The notes below the pieces were generated by a model that saw nothing but the letters and a program-made list of their open reading frames with translations, made no database searches and had not been told where the DNA came from. Below are positions 2,795 through 54,524 of a stretch of DNA of 61,188 bases, in pieces. The translations under genes and the position numbers were made by a program. Numbering within the stretch: the stretch's first letter is position 1; each line of letters opens with the position of its first letter. The stretch spans positions 1 to 61,188 of the forward strand of contig JACOWS010000006.1 of NCBI GenBank assembly GCA_016176685.1, in the 5' to 3' direction. This stretch comes from Patescibacteria group bacterium. GTDB lineage: Bacteria; Patescibacteriota; Minisyncoccia; Phycocordibacterales; SBAW01.

Positions 2795-3032
2795 ATTTTT
2801 GTGTTTGCTTTTGCTTTTTTGCTGTTTGAGAAAACCGACCTCTTTTCTTTAGTCTCTAGGACCGCCTCTATAGTAACAGACTCCTACCCCGCTGTCCACA
2901 AGCCCTGTAAGAGCATTATTTACCGCCCTTTTTTGGTTTTTTCTTATCCTTTTTGTATGCGTTGTTTCCTTTCGCCATAAACTTAATGTTATTTGATATT
3001 CTAAAAGTATATCATCGCTCGCTAGCCCTCGG

Positions 3033-3596
3033 CTAAGGGCATGGTGCAAATTCGCAATTCGGGCCTACTCTGCCCACCGCGGAGCCGTCGGGGCATAGTT
3101 TTGCTTCCATGGTACAGGCAACAGGTGGCGGGTTATTACTTACACCGGTTCCGGCAAACACCACCGGGATCTCGAGCGCATCATCGTGTTCGGGCAGGCC
3201 CGACGGGTTGTCTTTTTTGAGGATAAGCGTCCCTCTATTGCTATAGATGTTTTCATCTACCGTGAAGGTGAGTGTCGCTTCAAATGGCACAAAATCAGTC
3301 GTCATCCACTCGCTCTTGGCCGTTGCAATGCCCTGCGCGACAATCCTCCCGTCCCAGTCGGTCAAAAACACCGGGAAGCTCGCCTCAAAAAACCAATTTC
3401 CCCGCGCCTCTCCCAGGATGGTGAGCGGGCTAATGACACTCTGGTTTGGGCGCGGAGAGTCTAAGCGGATGAGGTCGGCATGAGAGTTTACCGGTTCTGC
3501 GGCACGAGGATTGAAAAATAAATATATGCCGGCGGCAACAACCAGCAGAACCAGTATGCCAGCTGTTCTACCCGCAAAAAATCTTATTGGTTTCAT
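3033..3596 (-). CDS. membrane-anchored Gmad2 (Ig-like) domain protein with C-terminal Cys motif
   Basis: N-terminal TM helix; ISPLTILGEARGNWFFEASFPV...WMTTDFVPF (Gmad2-like); C-terminal CTMEAKLCPDGSAVGRVGPNCEFAPCP. Start moved to MKPIRF at 3596. Confidence 0.75.
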   Translation of the reverse strand: MKPIRFFAGRTAGILVLLVVAAGIYLFFNPRAAEPVNSHADLIRLDSPRPNQSVISPLTILGEARGNWFFEASFPVFLTDWDGRIVAQGIATAKSEWMTTDFVPFEATLTFTVDENIYSNRGTLILKKDNPSGLPEHDDALEIPVVFAGTGVSNNPPPVACTMEAKLCPDGSAVGRVGPNCEFAPCP

Positions 3597-7465: not shown

Positions 7466-8577
7466 TGCTTACTTAGTATACCGTTTAGAAACCGCTCTAT
7501 CACCCGCTCTACCTCCCTTGCATTATTTGCCTCCATCAATGCTATACGCAACTCTTTGGCGCTGGGGCTAGCCACATACGCCTTAAAATGCTTTTTCATT
7601 ATGGCGAAATTTTTGATGTCGCCCAACAGCTCTTCAAAAAGCTTGGTGTGTTCTACTACTATTCGCAAACGCTCTTCAAGCGAAGGCAAAAAGCTTTGGA
7701 CAAATGGTCTGGCCCGAAGCCCGCCTGAAGGCGGACGAGGGAAACCCGAGGACCTTTGTCCAGAGCTTTTTGCTGAAGCTTCATCGAACAACCACGGCCG
7801 GCCAAAAATGGCGCGGCCGAGCATAATGCCGTCTGCGCCTGTTTCTTGCGCTTTGGCGCGAGCATCGTCAATGCTCAACATATCGCCATTGCCTATAATA
7901 AGCGTTTTGCTTTTCATTTCATCGCGGATCTCGACCGCCTTTTTTATCCGCTCCCAATGCGCGGGTACTTTTGACATTTCTTTGCGGGTACGCGCATGTA
8001 TCGCTATCGCGGCAGGTTCTGCCACAAGGAGCGCCGGTAGCCACTCTTCTAGTGTGTCTTTGTGGTAGCCAAGCCGCGTTTTGACCGAGACAGGCAAATG
8101 CCGCCCGCCGGGCAGACTCCGTCTGGAGACTCTGTCGGAACGAGCACTCTGGGCGGCGCCGCGTTTGGCCGCGGCTATAAGCTCTTGCGCGAGCTGTGGA
8201 TTAAGTATCAGCTTTGCCCCGGCACCCTGTTTTTCTACCACGCGGTCAGGGCAGCCCATATTGATGTCCACGCCGTCAAAACCGAGGCGCGCCGCCAGTA
8301 CCGCGGCTTTTTCCATATGCGCCGGAGTGGCGGTAAAAAACTGCGCCACTATCGGCCGTTCGGTTTCCGTATACAGTAGATCGCGCAAAAGTTTTTGCCT
8401 TCCCGCTTCCGGCGCGAGTGCCAGGCCGTCGGCCGAGACAAATTCCGTCCACAGCACTGCCGGGCCGGCGGGCTTGCTGTACTTTGCTATGATGCGACGA
8501 AAAGCCGCATCGGTGACGTTAGCCAGCGGCGCCAAACAAAAAAACGGCTTAGGTAGTGAGTCCCAAAAGCTTTGCAT
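7462..8577 (-). CDS. dusB: tRNA-dihydrouridine synthase with two in-frame hairpin insertions
   Basis: LAPLANVTD, DINMGCP, VSVKTRLG, AIHART, GNGD and GIMLGRA. Confidence 0.92.
   Translation of the reverse strand: MQSFWDSLPKPFFCLAPLANVTDAAFRRIIAKYSKPAGPAVLWTEFVSADGLALAPEAGRQKLLRDLLYTETERPIVAQFFTATPAHMEKAAVLAARLGFDGVDINMGCPDRVVEKQGAGAKLILNPQLAQELIAAAKRGAAQSARSDRVSRRSLPGGRHLPVSVKTRLGYHKDTLEEWLPALLVAEPAAIAIHARTRKEMSKVPAHWERIKKAVEIRDEMKSKTLIIGNGDMLSIDDARAKAQETGADGIMLGRAIFGRPWLFDEASAKSSGQRSSGFPRPPSGGLRARPFVQSFLPSLEERLRIVVEHTKLFEELLGDIKNFAIMKKHFKAYVASPSAKELRIALMEANNAREVERVIERFLNGILSKQ
7686..7773. repeat. in-frame hairpin element in dus (shares core with the parB element)
   Basis: 19-bp arms 7686-7704 and 7755-7773 (1 mismatch); core GTCTGGCCCGAAGC...GGGAAACCCGAGGAC. 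Confidence 0.85.
8103..8162. repeat. in-frame REP-like element in dus (shared with 37076-37108)
   Basis: GCCCGCCGGGCAGA (14/14) and GAGCACTCTGGGCGGCGCCGC (20/21) match 37076-37108. Confidence 0.75.
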
Positions 8578-16536: not shown

Positions 16537-18780
16537 ATGAAGTTGGTTATTGTTGAGTCGCCCGCAAAGGCAAAGACTATAGAAAAGTATCTTTCCCACA
16601 TCGACCAGAAGGGCGACTTTGTCGTGCGCGCCTCGGTGGGCCATGTGCGCGACCTGCCCAAGAGCAACAAAAAGGCGATAGATATTGAGGGTGGATTTGT
16701 CCCCCATTACGAGGTGGTGCCGGGAAAAGCGCGGGTTATCCACGAGCTTAGGGAGCTGGCACACAAAGCCGGCGAGGTTATACTGGCGACCGACCCAGAC
16801 CGCGAGGGCGAGGCGATTGCCTGGCACATACAAGAGGAACTGGGGCTTAAAAAACCAAAGAGAATCGTCTTTTACGAAATTACGGAGGAGGCCATAGCGG
16901 AGGCGCTGGCACACCCGCGTACCATTGACGACCACTTGCGGCTGGCACAAGAGGCGCGCCGCGTACTCGACCGGCTCGTGGGCTACGACCTTTCAGGACT
17001 TATATGGAAAAAGGTTCGCTACGGCCTTTCGGCCGGCCGTGTTCAAAGTCCGGCGCTCCGCATCATTATGGAGCGCGAGCGCGAGATACGCGCTTTTAAA
17101 CCGGAAACGTTTTATGTAATCACCGCACAGACAAAAACGCCTAAAAAAGAATCTCTGGTGTTGACCTGTTCTGAAGAGCCAAAAGAAAAGCGGGAATCGG
17201 AGCGCATCATAGCGGCGGTAAAAAAAGACGGGCTTATCGTTGCCGGTGTTACGGAAAGTGAGATGAAGCGCGCCGCCCGCGCACCTTTTACCACTTCAAC
17301 CCTGCAGCAAACGGCCTCAACCAGGCTGGGGTTCTCTCCTCAAAACACGATGCGTATCGCACAAAAGCTGTATGAGGCCGGGCATATTACCTACATGCGC
17401 ACCGACTCAACCAACCTCGGAGCCGCCGCGCAAAGCGCACTACTTGCCCAGGTGGAAAAAAAATACGGCAAAGAGTACGCAGCGGCCAACACCTTTGCCG
17501 CCAAGTCCAAAAACGCGCAGGAGGCGCACGAGGCGGTGCGTCCCACCCACGCGGACAAAGAGTCTATGGGCTCGACCCCCGAGCAGAAAAAACTCTACGA
17601 GCTTATCTGGCGGCGCGCCATCACTTCGCAAATGGCCGATGCAAAACTGCTTAAGACAAAAATCACCGCTCAAGTTCCAAGGGTCGCCCTTGGACATGTC
17701 CAAGGGCGACCCTTGGAACAAATTCCGGAATTTACCGCCAACGGCTCGCGCGTGGTATTTGACGGCTGGCTCCGCGCCGACCCGGCCGCACGCGGCGAAG
17801 ATGTCGAGCTTCCAAAAGTGGAGCAAAAAGAAGCGTTGGTTGTCGAAGAGGTCTCTTCCGAAGAAAAGCAGACCACCCCGCCGCCGCGCTACACCGAAGC
17901 GGGACTTATTAAAGAGTTGGAGAAGCGCGGCATCGGCCGCCCGTCCACTTACGCGAGCATTATGAAGACGCTTGCCGACCGCGGCTACGTGGTAAAAGAG
18001 GGTCGGAGTTTGCAGCCGACCGACACAGGCGACGTCGTTTCCACCTTTTTGGAAAAAAACTTTCCCTCCTACATCAGCGACACCTTTACCGCCGAGATGG
18101 AAGACGAGCTCGACGAAATAGCCGATGGCAAGCGCGAGTACGCAAAGACGCTCCGCGATTTTTATACCCCGTTTCGTAAAGAAGTAAAAATAAAAGACAA
18201 AGAGGCGGGGAAAATAACCGACCTCGGCCCCGCACCAAAAGAGTTTCCCTGTCCGGTATGCGGTGCCGGCATGGTGTTTAAACTCTCGCGCCAAGACACC
18301 TTTATGAGCTGCGCCCGCTTCCCCGACTGTTTGGGTGCGCGTACCGAGAAGGGAGAAGTACTTTTAAACGAGCCGCCAAAACCAATCGGTACGTATCCAG
18401 AAACAGGCGAGCCCATTTATGTGCTTAGCGGGCGCTTTGGCCCGTATGTCCAGGTTGGTGATACGCCGACCGGCAAAGGGTCAAGGTCGAAAAACAAGCC
18501 GCACCGCGCAAGCGTCCCAAAGGGAAAAGTGCCGGAAGAGGTGACTCTTAAAGATGCGTTAAAATATCTTTCGCTCCCGCGCGTGCTGGGCAACCATCCG
18601 GAAACTAATGAGCCCATTTCCGCAAACATCGGGCGCTTTGGCCCGTATGTCGTGCATCAAAAAGACTTCCGCTCGCTCAAAACAGACGATGTCTACACCA
18701 TAGAGCTTCAAAGAGCACTCGAAATTTTGAGAGAGGAAAAAAAGAAGCGCGGCTTCGCGCGCAAAAGTAAAAAGGAGTAG
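16537..18780 (+). CDS. topA: DNA topoisomerase I with an in-frame 46-bp palindrome
   Basis: VIVESPAKAKTI, ATDPDREGE, SAGRVQ, ITYMRTD, GIGRPSTY; Zn ribbon and Toprim C-terminal repeats. Confidence 0.97.
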   Translation: MKLVIVESPAKAKTIEKYLSHIDQKGDFVVRASVGHVRDLPKSNKKAIDIEGGFVPHYEVVPGKARVIHELRELAHKAGEVILATDPDREGEAIAWHIQEELGLKKPKRIVFYEITEEAIAEALAHPRTIDDHLRLAQEARRVLDRLVGYDLSGLIWKKVRYGLSAGRVQSPALRIIMEREREIRAFKPETFYVITAQTKTPKKESLVLTCSEEPKEKRESERIIAAVKKDGLIVAGVTESEMKRAARAPFTTSTLQQTASTRLGFSPQNTMRIAQKLYEAGHITYMRTDSTNLGAAAQSALLAQVEKKYGKEYAAANTFAAKSKNAQEAHEAVRPTHADKESMGSTPEQKKLYELIWRRAITSQMADAKLLKTKITAQVPRVALGHVQGRPLEQIPEFTANGSRVVFDGWLRADPAARGEDVELPKVEQKEALVVEEVSSEEKQTTPPPRYTEAGLIKELEKRGIGRPSTYASIMKTLADRGYVVKEGRSLQPTDTGDVVSTFLEKNFPSYISDTFTAEMEDELDEIADGKREYAKTLRDFYTPFRKEVKIKDKEAGKITDLGPAPKEFPCPVCGAGMVFKLSRQDTFMSCARFPDCLGARTEKGEVLLNEPPKPIGTYPETGEPIYVLSGRFGPYVQVGDTPTGKGSRSKNKPHRASVPKGKVPEEVTLKDALKYLSLPRVLGNHPETNEPISANIGRFGPYVVHQKDFRSLKTDDVYTIELQRALEILREEKKKRGFARKSKKE
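17674..17719. repeat. perfect 46-bp palindrome in topA (REP doublet)
   Basis: GTTCCAAGGGTCGCCCTTGGACATGTCCAAGGGCGACCCTTGGAAC is its own reverse complement. Confidence 0.95.
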
Positions 18781-20341: not shown

Positions 20342-21387
20342 ATTGAGAAGTTTTTCGGGTCAAACGTGTTTTCGTCTATAGTTTTTTCCTCTTCCGAGCG
20401 GTCGTCGAGATACTCCGCAGAAATATCGCCGTCAGCAGAGGCGGCACTGTCCTGCAAAATAGTCTGGCCCGAAGCTCGCTCACCTAGGCGAGCTTCGGGA
20501 GACCCGAGGACTTTTTGCAGGACAGTGCCGCCGGCGTTCTCTTGTTTTATTGAGGTAGCTTTTGCAACCAGCGAGTTGAGCAGTCCGCGCAGGTCGTCCT
20601 CGGTCATAAAGTCTATAGAGACTTTGCCACCGTTCTCCTTTGGCTCTATGGCGACGCGGGTGCCCAATACCTCGGTAAGGTCGCGCTCCATTTGCAAAAT
20701 CTCCGGCGCATAGAGGTACTCTTTTTTGCGCACGCGGTCGGTGGCGATGCGGCGTGCGATAGCCTCTGTGTCGCGCACGGTCAAACGTTTGAGCATAATT
20801 TCTTTAAACAGCACTGCCTGCTCGGCCGGGCGCTCTATAAGCATCAAAAGCGGCCGGGTGTGCCCCTCGTTTATCTTGCCTTCCGCCAGTGCTTGGCGCA
20901 TCTCCTCCGGCAGCCCAAGTATCCGCAGAGAGTTGGAGACATACTCGCGGCTCTTGCCAATTTTGCTGGCAATTTCCGTGTGTTTAAATCCAAACTCTTT
21001 TACCAACTTTTCAAATGCTTGCGCGCGGTCTAAGGGGTTTAAGTCCTCGCGCTGGAGGTTTTCTATAATAGCCAATTCCAGTTTGGTTTTGTCGTCGTCA
21101 AAACCGGCACGGATAAGGACGGGCACTTGAGCTATACCGGCGATTTTTGCGGCGCGCAGGCGCCGCTCGCCGGCTATAAGCTCATACTCGGCAGCCAGCC
21201 CTCCCTCCGCCTTTTCCACCTCGCGGCGCGAGACGGTTAGCGGTTGCAAGACACCATACTGGCGTATGGAGCGCGCAAGGTCGGCCAACTTAGCCTCGTC
21301 AAACTCTTTGCGGGGCTGAAAGGGATTGGGTTTTATCTTGTCTACCTCTATCCAAAAAATCGCGTTGTTGAAAAACTCGGAAGCCAT
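20338..21387 (-). CDS. parB: ParB/Spo0J partition protein with an in-frame hairpin in the C-terminal tail
   Basis: IKPNPFQPRKEF, GVLQPLTV, AGERRLRA and IIENLQREDLNP. Confidence 0.93.
   Translation of the reverse strand: MASEFFNNAIFWIEVDKIKPNPFQPRKEFDEAKLADLARSIRQYGVLQPLTVSRREVEKAEGGLAAEYELIAGERRLRAAKIAGIAQVPVLIRAGFDDDKTKLELAIIENLQREDLNPLDRAQAFEKLVKEFGFKHTEIASKIGKSREYVSNSLRILGLPEEMRQALAEGKINEGHTRPLLMLIERPAEQAVLFKEIMLKRLTVRDTEAIARRIATDRVRKKEYLYAPEILQMERDLTEVLGTRVAIEPKENGGKVSIDFMTEDDLRGLLNSLVAKATSIKQENAGGTVLQKVLGSPEARLGERASGQTILQDSAASADGDISAEYLDDRSEEEKTIDENTFDPKNFSI
20440..20532. repeat. in-frame hairpin element in parB (shares core with dus 7686-7773)
   Basis: Perfect 20-bp arms 20440-20459 and 20513-20532; inner 12-bp stem CCCGAAGCTCGC/GCGAGCTTCGGG. 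Confidence 0.88.
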
Positions 21388-22979: not shown

Positions 22980-23020
22980 GCACCCCGCCTTCCGTTTGGA
23001 GGCGGGGTGCTTTCTTTTTT
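22980..23020 (+). terminator. intrinsic terminator after pyrE-pyrF
   Basis: GCACCCCGCC/GGCGGGGTGC stem followed by TTTCTTTTTT. Confidence 0.85.
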
Positions 23021-23045
23021 ATGCAAAGCGCGGTACAAAAATGTC

Positions 23046-24011
23046 GTGGCAAAAAAGATTAGAATAATTGCGGTGGTGGGTCCTACCGCTTCTGGCAAGT
23101 CTTCGCTCGGGGTCTACCTTGCACAAAAGTGCGGGGGTGAAATCATTTCTGCCGACAGCCGGCAAGTATACCGCGGGCTTAACATCGGCAGCGGCAAGGT
23201 AACAAAAAAAGAAATGGCGGGTGTCCCCCACCACCTGCTTGATGTTGCCTCACCAAAAAAGCAATTTTCTGCCGACGACTTTGTAAAACATTCAGAAAGA
23301 GCGATAAAAGATATAACGGAAAGTGACTTGATATATCAAGTCACTTTCCGCGCGCAACTCCCCCCCGTGCCAATTGTGGTGGGCGGCACCGGGTTTTATA
23401 CAGACGCGCTTTTGGGGCGCATTACCCTGCCCCAGGTACCGCCAAACCAAAAACTGCGAGAACAACTGGAACAAAAAACAGTCGAGCAATTATTCAAACA
23501 ACTCAAAAAGCTCGATCCCAATCGTGCCAAAACTATAGAGCCATACCACAAGCGCCGGCTCATCAGAGCAATAGAAATAGCTAAATATCCCAACAAATTA
23601 TTGACTACTGGTAAAAATCATAGAGGCGATGCCTCTATGAAATATGATGTGCTTTGGCTTGGTCTTAAGCCCAATACAGAAAAGTTAAAGAAAAACATTC
23701 ATACTCGCCTGCTGGCTCGACTTAAACAAGGCATGGTCGCAGAGGCCAAGCGCCTGCATGCCAGGGGGCTTTCGTACAAACGGATGGAGGAGCTGGGGCT
23801 GGAGTATCGCTCGCTTGCAAAATTTTTACAGAAAAAAATAAGCAAAAAAGAGCTTGAGGAAGAAATAGAGCGTGGTAATTGGCTCTACGCCAAACGGCAA
23901 ATGCGCTGGTTTAAACGCAACCCCGACATCCACTGGGTCAAAAGCCCGCCTGACAGTCGGGCAGGCAAAACAGAGGCCCTGCGGTTGGCGCGAAAGTTTT
24001 TAAAAGATTAG
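23046..24011 (+). CDS. miaA: tRNA dimethylallyltransferase with three in-frame palindromes
   Basis: VVGPTASGKS, IISADSRQVYRG, VVGGTGFY, RRLIRAIE and YAKRQMRWF; GTG start inferred at 23046. Confidence 0.94.
   Translation: MAKKIRIIAVVGPTASGKSSLGVYLAQKCGGEIISADSRQVYRGLNIGSGKVTKKEMAGVPHHLLDVASPKKQFSADDFVKHSERAIKDITESDLIYQVTFRAQLPPVPIVVGGTGFYTDALLGRITLPQVPPNQKLREQLEQKTVEQLFKQLKKLDPNRAKTIEPYHKRRLIRAIEIAKYPNKLLTTGKNHRGDASMKYDVLWLGLKPNTEKLKKNIHTRLLARLKQGMVAEAKRLHARGLSYKRMEELGLEYRSLAKFLQKKISKKELEEEIERGNWLYAKRQMRWFKRNPDIHWVKSPPDSRAGKTEALRLARKFLKD
23317..23350. repeat. perfect 34-bp palindrome in miaA
   Basis: CGGAAAGTGACTTGATATATCAAGTCACTTTCCG. Confidence 0.92.
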
Positions 24012-31937: not shown

Positions 31938-33266
31938 TTATAGCACATGACGGTACAGTGCGACAATACTTTCCAAGGCGCGGGCGATAGTACGCGCGTC
32001 GGCTCTTGTGGCGGTTGGCAAAAGGGTCAGCCGCAGTGAAGAGCGCGCCAACTCCGGAGAAACGCCGAGCGCCTCAAGCATGTGGCTGGGGTGGCCCGAG
32101 GAAGTGTCGCAGGCACTGCGGGTCGAGGCGGCGATGCCGCCCGCGTCGAGCGCTATAACCGCCATCTCACCGGAGAGACCGGGTATTATTAAATTAATAT
32201 TATTTGCAATCCGGCAGGCCGGAGAAAAGGGGGTAAGACTTGGCCTAGCGGCCCGGAGCGCACCCTTTTCCTGGCCTGCCGGATTGTTCCCACATGCCGG
32301 ACCGTTGAGTTTTGCACTCGGAATGCGCCGCTGTATTTCGCTCCATAAAAAGTCGCGCACAGCCGCCGTCTGCAGTGCGCGTGCTTCGCACCCTTTTGCC
32401 GCCTCCACAAGCGCCGCGGCAAACGCACCGGCCGCGGCGACATTTTCTGTCCCACTGCGCAAACCGGCCTCTTGCCCGCCGCCCCAAATAATCGGCTCAA
32501 CCAAAGTACCGCGGCGTACGTAGAGAGCTCCTATACCTTTTGGCCCGCCGACCTTTTGCGCATCCAGAGTCATCAAATCAACGCCAAGTTTTTCTACATT
32601 AAGCGGCAGCCACAGGGGCGCCTGCGACGCATCGGTGTGCAGGTAAAGCGGGGCAGAATCTCGCAAAGCGAGGGTAAGACTTGGGTCTTTAGCGGCCCGG
32701 AGCGCCCGAGTGTGCGGGATTCTGCCCCGCTTTATAAAACGCAGTTCTTTTGCAATCGCGCGGATGTCTTGCACCGCGCCCATTTCGCTGTTGACCATCT
32801 GCACCGACAAAAGCGCGGTGTCCTCGCCTACCGCTTCGCGCAACTGTTTTGGGTCTAGGAGTCCGTGTGCATCTACGGTAAGTTTTGTAACATACAAACC
32901 CTCGCGCTCAAGCGCGCGCAGGGGTTCCAATACCGAAGAATGTTCTATCGCGCTCGTGACTGCCCCCACCTCTCCACGATCTAAAAGAAGCGGCCGCAAT
33001 ACGCCTTGGAGCGCGAGGTTGTTTGCCTCGGTACCGCTGCCCACAAATATAATTTCGTCCGCGTGGGCGCCGATGGCGCCTGCAACTTTCGCGCGCGCGG
33101 CCTCAAGCTCTTTTTGTGCCGCAACCGCCTCCTGGTGGAGCGCGCTTGGATTGCCAAAAAGCCGCAAGAGCCGTGCAAGCTCTTTTCGTGCCGCGCGCGA
33201 GAGCGGCATCGCCGCCGCCGCGTCTGCATAGACCCGTTTACCCGGCCATCGTATCTGCCATTTCAT
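31938..33266 (-). CDS. iscS: cysteine desulfurase (IscS/NifS family) with two in-frame hairpin insertions
   Basis: GNPSALH, SGTEANN, HTDASQ, DAQKVGGPKGIG, RSGTEN and STRSAC (catalytic Cys). Confidence 0.92.
   Translation of the reverse strand: MKWQIRWPGKRVYADAAAAMPLSRAARKELARLLRLFGNPSALHQEAVAAQKELEAARAKVAGAIGAHADEIIFVGSGTEANNLALQGVLRPLLLDRGEVGAVTSAIEHSSVLEPLRALEREGLYVTKLTVDAHGLLDPKQLREAVGEDTALLSVQMVNSEMGAVQDIRAIAKELRFIKRGRIPHTRALRAAKDPSLTLALRDSAPLYLHTDASQAPLWLPLNVEKLGVDLMTLDAQKVGGPKGIGALYVRRGTLVEPIIWGGGQEAGLRSGTENVAAAGAFAAALVEAAKGCEARALQTAAVRDFLWSEIQRRIPSAKLNGPACGNNPAGQEKGALRAARPSLTPFSPACRIANNINLIIPGLSGEMAVIALDAGGIAASTRSACDTSSGHPSHMLEALGVSPELARSSLRLTLLPTATRADARTIARALESIVALYRHVL
32207..32286. 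repeat. in-frame hairpin element 1 in iscS
   Basis: 14-bp perfect arms CAATCCGGCAGGCC/GGCCTGCCGGATTG; core shared with 32644-32734. Confidence 0.88.
32644..32734. repeat. in-frame hairpin element 2 in iscS
   Basis: 22-bp arms (1 mismatch); core GGGTAAGACTTGG...TAGCGGCCCGGAGCGC. Confidence 0.88.
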
Positions 33267-54426: not shown

Positions 54427-54524
54427 ATTTCACGCACAAATTTAAAAAAGTCGGCGCTCCGGGCCGTTAAAGACACAAGTCTTACCGACTTTTTTAATTT
54501 TGTGCGCTCCTGTATACTGTTTCT

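Follow-up and report, generated by a model that had tools for sequence, protein, structure and literature searches.

Rickettsia palindromic elements (RPEs; Ogata et al. 2000) are listed as repeats of about 105–146 bp and as fused in frame into protein genes (PMC3184786). A second group of palindromic repeats, the repetitive extragenic palindromic sequences (REPs) and the REPINs, comprises palindromes tagged with GTAG/CGTC and associated with RAYT transposases of the Y1 HUH type (PMC3733652). Here, we describe a hairpin element in a 61,188-nt contig of a Patescibacteria group bacterium (JACOWS010000006.1, assembly GCA_016176685.1; this whole stretch is referred to as the window), where two copies of the element lie in frame within a single cysteine desulfurase gene, hereafter iscS. 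Our favoured explanation, which we consider probable, is that these hairpins are resident copies of a selfish, RPE-like palindromic repeat that enters genes as a whole hairpin, evolves in place and is spread by a trans-acting factor.

The desulfurase, a NifS/IscS-type protein of 442 aa with an Aminotran_5 fold, is encoded on the minus strand at 31938–33266, as assigned from its open reading frame (ORF) and by comparison with homologues. Both hairpins carry their core on the plus strand, antisense to the mRNA. Copy A (32207–32286) occupies what we call site 2 of the protein, at about residues 327–353 between LNGP and RIANN; its 24-nt arms (32207–32230 with 32263–32286) are 83% complementary and enclose a tip region of 32 nt, with the standard 28-nt apical form GTAAGACTTGGCCTAGCGGCCCGGAGCG as core at 32233–32260. 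Copy B (32644–32734) occupies site 1, at about residues 178–207 directly before the PLYLHTDA strand, and has 22-nt arms (32644–32665 with 32713–32734) that are 95% complementary, as well as a 31-nt variant core, GTAAGACTTGGGTCTTTAGCGGCCCGGAGCG, at 32674–32704. A third copy of the family, with 22-nt arms and A6/T6 tracts, lies on the minus strand at 54433–54506 (core at 54455–54485), in an intergenic region between two plus-strand ORFs. The apical core common to copies A and B consists of GTAAGACTTGG, followed by either CCT or GTCTTT, and then AGCGGCCCGGAGCG. As a first-pass annotation of this DNA had noted, the blocks GGGTAAGACTTGG (at 32231 and 32672) and TAGCGGCCCGGAGCGC (at 32246 and 32690) are identical in both copies, and the spacers CCT and GTCTTT differ by 3 nt, which keeps the frame; its placement of both hairpins in frame inside one desulfurase ORF was confirmed, too, together with the peptides, which contain GALRAARPSLTPF and RALRAAKDPSLTLA. 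Its assignment of different inverted arms to each copy also holds, except that the arms are longer than it had stated.

The alignment of the desulfurase with a solved cysteine desulfurase, 9wep_A (E=3e-63), falls into three blocks that skip both inserts: at site 1, residues 175–204 stand opposite only five residues of 9wep_A (174–178), and at site 2, residues 320–348 opposite only four (294–297). Some homologues of the desulfurase likewise have just a few residues at each of the two positions, and these short loops bear out the earlier reading of copies A and B as inserts. PF00266 is present in the homologues, and HTDA, K238 and C386 are invariant across 60 desulfurase sequences, with the regions around the pyridoxal phosphate-binding lysine and the catalytic cysteine being conserved. 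In an AlphaFold2 model computed with 60 homologues, the mean predicted local distance difference test score (pLDDT) is 87, and the main dips fall on the two inserts, where the blocks within residues 181–200 score 68 and 64 at site 1 and those within residues 331–350 score 47 and 49 at site 2; a third, short dip at residues 262–270 is unrelated to them. We conclude that the two hairpins are genuine inserts in surface loops of the desulfurase. Judging by their open frames, they are likely to be translated, each adding about 25 residues to its loop as a floppy extension.

A comparison with the iscS genes of sister genomes, proposed at first pass to look for presence or absence at the two loops, revealed both: the site-2 hairpin recurs in the related loci L125, the L118 group and L119, the site-1 hairpin in L125 and L121 and, as a remnant, in L119 and L120, and elsewhere the sites are empty or refilled. 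At site 2, the hairpin sits at the same codon position in L125 (90% protein identity), in the group of L118, L122, L123 and L126 (82%) and in L119 (76%), while L120 and L121 have a short loop there. In all of the former, the core is oriented in mRNA sense and encodes GKTWPSGPER, whereas it is antisense in the window. After reverse complementation, 77 of the 80 positions of copy A are identical to the hairpin of L118, compared to 60 of 83 in the same sense. Of its positions, 34 are not self-complementary, all of them between positions 14 and 65, while the outer 14 bp of each arm are perfectly paired; it is the asymmetric inner 52 nt that are flipped relative to L118. Since the match at the same codon position appears only after reverse complementation, and since the outer arms are perfect, the insert at site 2 has flipped in situ on the lineage of the window genome, through an exchange inside its arms.

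The site-1 hairpin has taken a different course in each relative. In L121 (60% identity), the orthologous copy is intact, with two to three changes in the core; L119 has kept 18-bp arms around a decayed loop, and in L120 only the truncated remnant ACTCCACAAAACGAGGGTAAGACTTGGCC is left, comprising the left arm and half the core in opposite orientation. Elsewhere in the family, truncated remnants occur in L057 and L090. L125 combines the left arm of copy B with the standard 28-nt tip, and its right inner arm, which holds an in-frame TAG, differs. The 31-nt variant tip was found only in copy B and in the third copy of the window, and its extra GTCTT corresponds to the adjoining AAGAC in reverse complement; this suggests that the tip of one copy was converted by another or that a template-switch mutation arose repeatedly. 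The members of the L118 group, finally, carry a different palindrome at site 1 that lacks the core.

Because copy A, with its A-tract/GGGG stem, and copy B, of the CGAGG...CCCGAG type, differ in stem type and are each shared with orthologues, they are separate and not recent events, neither being a local copy of the other. The repeated local insertion put forward in the first-pass annotation thus loses its footing. In its strict form, one copy would have seeded the other within the gene, with the orientation fixed by the mRNA. The two copies do lie just 441 nt apart in one gene and in the same orientation, with identical 13-mer and 16-mer blocks, and the string CCACAAAACGAGGGTAAGACTTGG is common to site 1 of L120 and site 2 of L119. 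However, not only the stem types but also the tip variants differ, each copy has its own set of orthologues, and in L125, L118 and L119 the site-2 copy points the other way; moreover, two further homologues, P0022 and P0064, have both loops filled in orientations and frames other than those of the window. We therefore regard local re-insertion as very improbable. The string CCACAAAACGAGGGTAAGACTTGG (at 3513–3597 in L120 and at 2951–3059 in its sister L119) hints at an exchange between the two loops of one gene.

L125 carries an in-frame TAG within its site-1 insert (3013–3133; ...SLTLLQ*RAPLY...), downstream of which the frame is kept. This could reflect a pseudogene, a strain variant or an insert that is not always translated. 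It also bears on the idea that the inserts are removed at the RNA level, either in an intron-like manner or by processing and re-ligation, with the enzyme being made without them, an idea that the very high stability of the hairpins would equally accommodate. Yet every genic copy that we have seen is stop-free and preserves the frame, and such copies lie in four or five frames and both orientations; as frame-keeping would be unnecessary for a spliced insert, this counts against RNA removal. In addition, a search of 32150–32800 against Rfam 15 at E values of up to 10 yielded only weak matches to microRNA-like hairpins and none to a ribozyme or intron family, and at the gathering score only tRNAs were recovered from the whole window. 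As the hairpin of L125 is itself disrupted, a pseudogene or strain variant is the simpler explanation of its stop codon, and we give RNA removal hardly any credence.

The two loops behave as hot spots beyond these close relatives. Among the best 120 desulfurase homologues (53–82% identity), 14 carry a total of 16 core-derived peptides, all of which are located at the two loops, eight in sense and eight in antisense, and in four frames. On a tree of 121 proteins, presence of the insert requires eight changes at site 1 and six at site 2, against averages of 9.7 and 7.8 for shuffled labels, and the presence states are thus scattered and only weakly clustered. Site 1 also accommodates several other hairpin-type inserts. 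In particular, L121 and L202/L203/L204 differ by one mismatch in 4065 nt of flanking sequence (99.97% identity), yet their site-1 patches are unrelated: L121 has a 98-nt hairpin of the family (1929–2026), whereas L202 has an unrelated, hairpin-containing sequence of 83 nt (2020–2102), and the boundaries of the patches fall at the hairpin base. A whole hairpin patch has been replaced here in near-identical alleles. P0019 and P0027, considered as a second allele pair, are just 97% identical overall and were dropped as uninformative. The patch of L202 contains CCCGAGCGTAGTGAGGG, which is similar to an inverted arm of the L121 hairpin. The core-less palindrome at site 1 of L118, L122, L123 and L126 (e.g. 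L118, 1780–1891) reads AGCAAGGGGAACCCTTGCT-AAGAAGT-AGCAAGGGTTCCCCTTGCT and encodes ...KGSPC..., and a related palindrome, GAGCAAGGGTAGTCCTTGCTC, is found at site 2 of L127.

To place the window copies in a wider context, one genome per species was scanned for the exact pattern GTAAGACTTG-N(3-12)-GGCCCGGAGCG, which all three window copies match. This yielded at least 117 loci with the exact core, each on its own, copy-specific stem of about 20–30 bp. Among the matches listed, to which the family counts here and below refer, nearly all belong to Patescibacteria (Saccharimonadota, Minisyncoccota, Kaiseribacteriota and Peregrinibacteriota), the remainder being four Bifidobacterium species and one metagenome-assembled genome (MAG) of Actinomycetota; the 28-nt core is the usual form, and the arms, measured in 118 copies, are mostly 21–31 nt long, a range into which those of the window, with 24, 22 and 22 nt, fit well. 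Certain inner-stem types recur across genomes (A5GTGG...CACACT5, CGAGG...CCCGAG and GGTA...CGACC), as do, in many of the listed loci, the stem-end motifs GAGCCGGCA...TGCCGGCGA, and many stems have an A-tract ahead of the tip and a T-tract behind it. One 804-kb Patescibacteria chromosome, OY970216.1, carries at least four copies. Contigs assembled from the source metagenomes are interrupted at both cores of the desulfurase gene, where the summed word depth exceeds that of the flanks by a factor of about 25. For the internal loop of the tip, a kink-turn was tried by eye and did not fit; a UAA/GAN-type motif may be possible. A literature search with the core words returned unrelated primer or mitochondrial matches only, a topic search general reviews of repeats, and the core was absent from the viral contigs searched; the family is widespread in these ultra-small groundwater bacteria and apparently undescribed, with no published name found.

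Outside the desulfurases at hand, single genic copies were listed in MiaA, UvrC and another desulfurase. In further genes, copies recur at one and the same site: L036, L046 and L057 share the position in class I tRNA synthetases, and L017 and L054 do so in an MTS methyltransferase. In MgsA, the copies of L053 and L085 have opposite orientations and unrelated stems, and opposite orientations are also found in a Wzy_C membrane protein of L019 and L031. The Bifidobacterium carriers L001, L038, L061 and L073, which correspond to B. hapali, B. cebidarum, B. panos and B. goeldii, have long, perfect stems; in B. panos, a single intergenic region contains an inverted pair of copies, spaced by 157 nt. 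In the Actinomycetota MAG (L004), an ABC-F-type ATPase contains the core in frame. Actinobacteria serve as hosts on which Saccharibacteria live, and a transfer of the hairpin between them and their actinobacterial partners is conceivable.

What exactly is inserted can be judged from the pair L081 and L018, in which about 83 nt, including both arms, are missing from the empty site of L018. Furthermore, arms are more alike within a genome (mean of 33.0 matches in 54 positions) than between genomes (27.6 of 54), and scores of at least 45 were reached by 4 of the 106 within-genome pairs, compared to 10 of the 6680 between-genome pairs listed; in L047 and L070, which reside on one chromosome, a single arm position differs. 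These data point to the whole hairpin as the inserted unit. An alternative is that only the apical module of about 30 nt, with a few flanking base pairs, replicates into pre-existing palindromes in either orientation, which would explain why stems are copy-specific. Consistent with this, the window and L125 share the left arm of site 1 and differ in their tips (31 versus 28 nt), the same loop is taken in closely related loci, namely the L118 group and L202, by hairpins that lack the core, non-orthologous stems are only weakly alike, and the outer ends of the iscS arms overlap native codons that are conserved, namely those for PLY (CCGCTTTA) and for RI (CGGATT). It was this overlap that raised the idea that stems are copied from the target. 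Such an origin was rejected as a general rule, and spread of the tip alone appears unlikely to us, as the empty site of L018 lacks the L081 hairpin with both of its arms, inner stems and stem ends recur across genomes, and whole arms are common to copies within one genome.

With regard to orientation, the first-pass annotation had seen a bias relative to transcription that pointed to an RNA-level or strand-specific mechanism. No bias relative to the mRNA is apparent in the larger sample: 38 of the roughly 120 listed copies lie inside ORFs, 22 in sense and 16 in antisense, although the ORF calling behind this division was crude and some copies near ORF starts are probably over-called as genic. 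Together with the even split in the desulfurases (8:8) and the flipped site-2 copy, this makes the bias within the window an effect of small sample size. The second part of the claim survives in altered form, as a strand signature does exist but belongs to the element. When stem mismatches more than 5 nt away from the core were counted on the core-sense strand, G·T exceeded A·C by 102 to 25 among the matches listed (p=3e-12). The excess holds for genic copies antisense (16 versus 1) and sense (19 versus 3) to the gene and for intergenic copies in antisense (27 versus 10) and sense (13 versus 5); because it is found in every context, the folding strand is set by the element and not by the host transcript. 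In iscS, the strand favoured in both copies runs antisense to the mRNA. In line with this, these copies fold better on the plus strand (−57.7 versus −50.8 and −62.7 versus −46.4 kcal/mol).

That it matters for one particular strand to fold, as the G·T excess implies, would also be expected if the hairpin served its host, for example by stopping transcription in both directions, by stabilising or processing RNA or by binding a protein, with genic copies as tolerated by-products or regulators. About two thirds of the listed copies are in fact intergenic, mostly toward gene 3' ends (55 antisense, 35 sense), an A-tract and a T-tract border the tip in many stems, and the same tip recurs in several phyla. 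On the other hand, genic copies occur in both orientations, with the favoured strand antisense to the mRNA in many of them, including both in iscS; termination needs no constant 28-nt tip, and at orthologous sites the hairpins decay and are lost freely. A simple consensus scan for intrinsic terminators called none of the three window copies, whose loops measure 30–47 nt and of which the intergenic one does have A6/T6 tracts; this candidate was rejected. Overall, a host-serving role seems to us an improbable explanation.

We return to the selfish, RPE-like repeat, for which the following course of events may be envisaged. The family would be a non-coding palindromic repeat of about 80–95 nt, with a near-constant apical module of 28–31 nt on a copy-specific stem of 20–30 bp, of which each copy would have entered one surface loop separately and as a whole hairpin. 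Selection would then filter these passengers down to permissive loops and stop-free frames; inserts can persist because their length keeps the frame and four to five of the six reading frames of the core are stop-free. Once resident, a hairpin can invert by exchange between its own arms, as has happened at site 2; the arms stay complementary, and the tip can change type. A resident copy can also be truncated, deleted or, as has happened in relatives, replaced as a whole patch in otherwise identical alleles. Inversion and homogeneity of the arms could both arise from exchange or template switching between them, the latter being suggested by the extra GTCTT of the variant tip as reverse complement of the adjoining AAGAC, and breaks induced by the hairpin and mended from homologous DNA could, speculatively, account for patch replacement. 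The element would spread via a putative trans-acting factor for which the folded apical module, on one strand of a single-stranded nucleic acid, would be the recognition signal, given that the excess of G·T over A·C goes with the core whatever the host gene. Single-stranded DNA is the more plausible form, compared to RNA, since in many cases the only transcript known lies antisense to the strand that is favoured.

Several observations weigh against this explanation. The near-invariance of the core across the at least 117 loci is partly built in, because the scan demanded an exact core; decay of the core is visible in the orthologous desulfurase copies. Non-orthologous stems are 54–76% alike (median 28–29 of 54 arm positions among the matches listed), which is unusual for a recently transposing unit, and no clear target-site duplication was seen in L081/L018, the sole clean empty-site pair. 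The location of most listed copies next to gene 3' ends fits a host function equally well, the translation of the inserts would follow from open frames only, and in L125 a stop codon lies inside an insert. Lastly, no mobilising enzyme turned up, and no genome-wide search for one was made.

A further-reaching proposal, which we put forward tentatively and consider rather doubtful, is that the constant 28-nt tip serves as the handle of an undescribed machinery that is shared by Patescibacteria, was passed to some Bifidobacterium and acts on single-stranded hairpins of one polarity, so that hairpin sites in essential genes become recombination hot spots where cassettes flip, exchange and get replaced. 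If true, this machinery would be a steady source of the lineage-specific loop insertions that characterise these bacteria. Odd insertions in conserved proteins and rRNAs are a known trait of Patescibacteria, and the desulfurase locus provides a concrete and datable example, in which a single copy is traceable through inversion, tip change, truncation and loss across orthologues. The search for the factor narrows to a reader of a folded single strand, as the strand signature follows the element, and the presence of the same core in cultivable Bifidobacterium opens up experiments that are impossible in uncultured groundwater bacteria.

The window contains additional hairpins. A second family is represented by a copy in frame in a dus-like ORF (7686–7773, plus strand; core GTCTGGCCCGAAGC...GGGAAACCCGAGGAC) and one with perfect 20-nt arms in frame in a parB-like ORF (20440–20532, plus strand); the family, GTCTGGCCCGAAGC...GGGARACCCGAGGAC with 20-bp arms, folds slightly better on the strand that carries GGCCCGRAGC, and a search of a further 1.25 Mb of Patescibacteria loci did not recover it. 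GGCCCGRAGC occurs five times in the window, against 0.52 expected, and none of 100 shuffles reached five; these sites correspond to the two iscS copies, the third, intergenic copy and the dus-like and parB-like hairpins. Both strands of each of these hairpins fold well beyond shuffled sequences (z of −5 to −9). All five sites are antisense to local transcription; the first-pass annotation had reported a common orientation relative to the mRNA for four of them, having missed the third copy of the iscS family. GGCCCGRAGC and CCCGAG, the only motifs that the two families share, are what may link them. Two perfect palindromes without spacer also lie in frame: one of 46 nt (17674–17719; peptide VPRVALGHVQGRPLEQ) in a 747-aa ORF (16537–18780), which resembles CAAGGG...CCCTTG palindromes in the desulfurase loops of relatives, and one of 34 nt (23317–23350; peptide TESDLIYQVTFR) in a 334-aa ORF (23007–24011). 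The desulfurase gene itself stands in the order IF-2, desulfurase, a 275-aa hypothetical protein and ClpB, which is conserved in the relatives L118–L126.

Among known systems, REPs and REPINs resemble the element as multi-copy hairpin repeats for which handling as single-stranded DNA of one polarity is assumed, a property with which the G·T excess fits. However, REPs are 20–40 bp long, with tag and stem constant within a genome, whereas here the loop is constant and the stem varies, and the hairpins, at 80–95 nt, are longer and have their conserved part in the loop, not at the stem base where REPs carry their GTAG or CGTC tag; REPs are also typically extragenic, while the present element occurs in frame in genes as well. 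The attC sites of integrons, too, are read as a folded single strand of one polarity and are largely free in sequence as long as structure is kept. Yet attC sites are conserved at the stem base (R''/R') and variable at the tip, the opposite of what we see here, and they flank cassettes beside an integrase, a context absent from the window hairpins. In the layout of a miniature inverted-repeat transposable element, the stems would act as the inverted repeats; L081/L018, as the single clean empty-site pair, has no clear duplication.

For the behaviour of resident copies, there are precedents in the small, hairpin-linked inversions ('flip-flop' loops) of plastid non-coding DNA and in quasipalindrome template switching in bacteria. 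Likewise, close relatives differ by an inversion of the inner 52 nt of the site-2 hairpin, with breakpoints in perfect 14-bp arms, but here the inversion took place within an essential coding sequence whose frame is open in both orientations. By its layout as an in-frame palindromic insert, the element works like an RPE, a likeness with which we claim no membership. Both are small, non-coding palindromic repeats of reduced genomes, located between genes as well as in frame in housekeeping genes, where they add loops without destroying the protein. The present element is shorter, at 80–95 nt, and it is distinguished by a conserved hairpin tip on stems that vary from copy to copy, by its hosts, which are Patescibacteria and a few Bifidobacterium, and by the in-place inversion and whole-hairpin replacement documented here.

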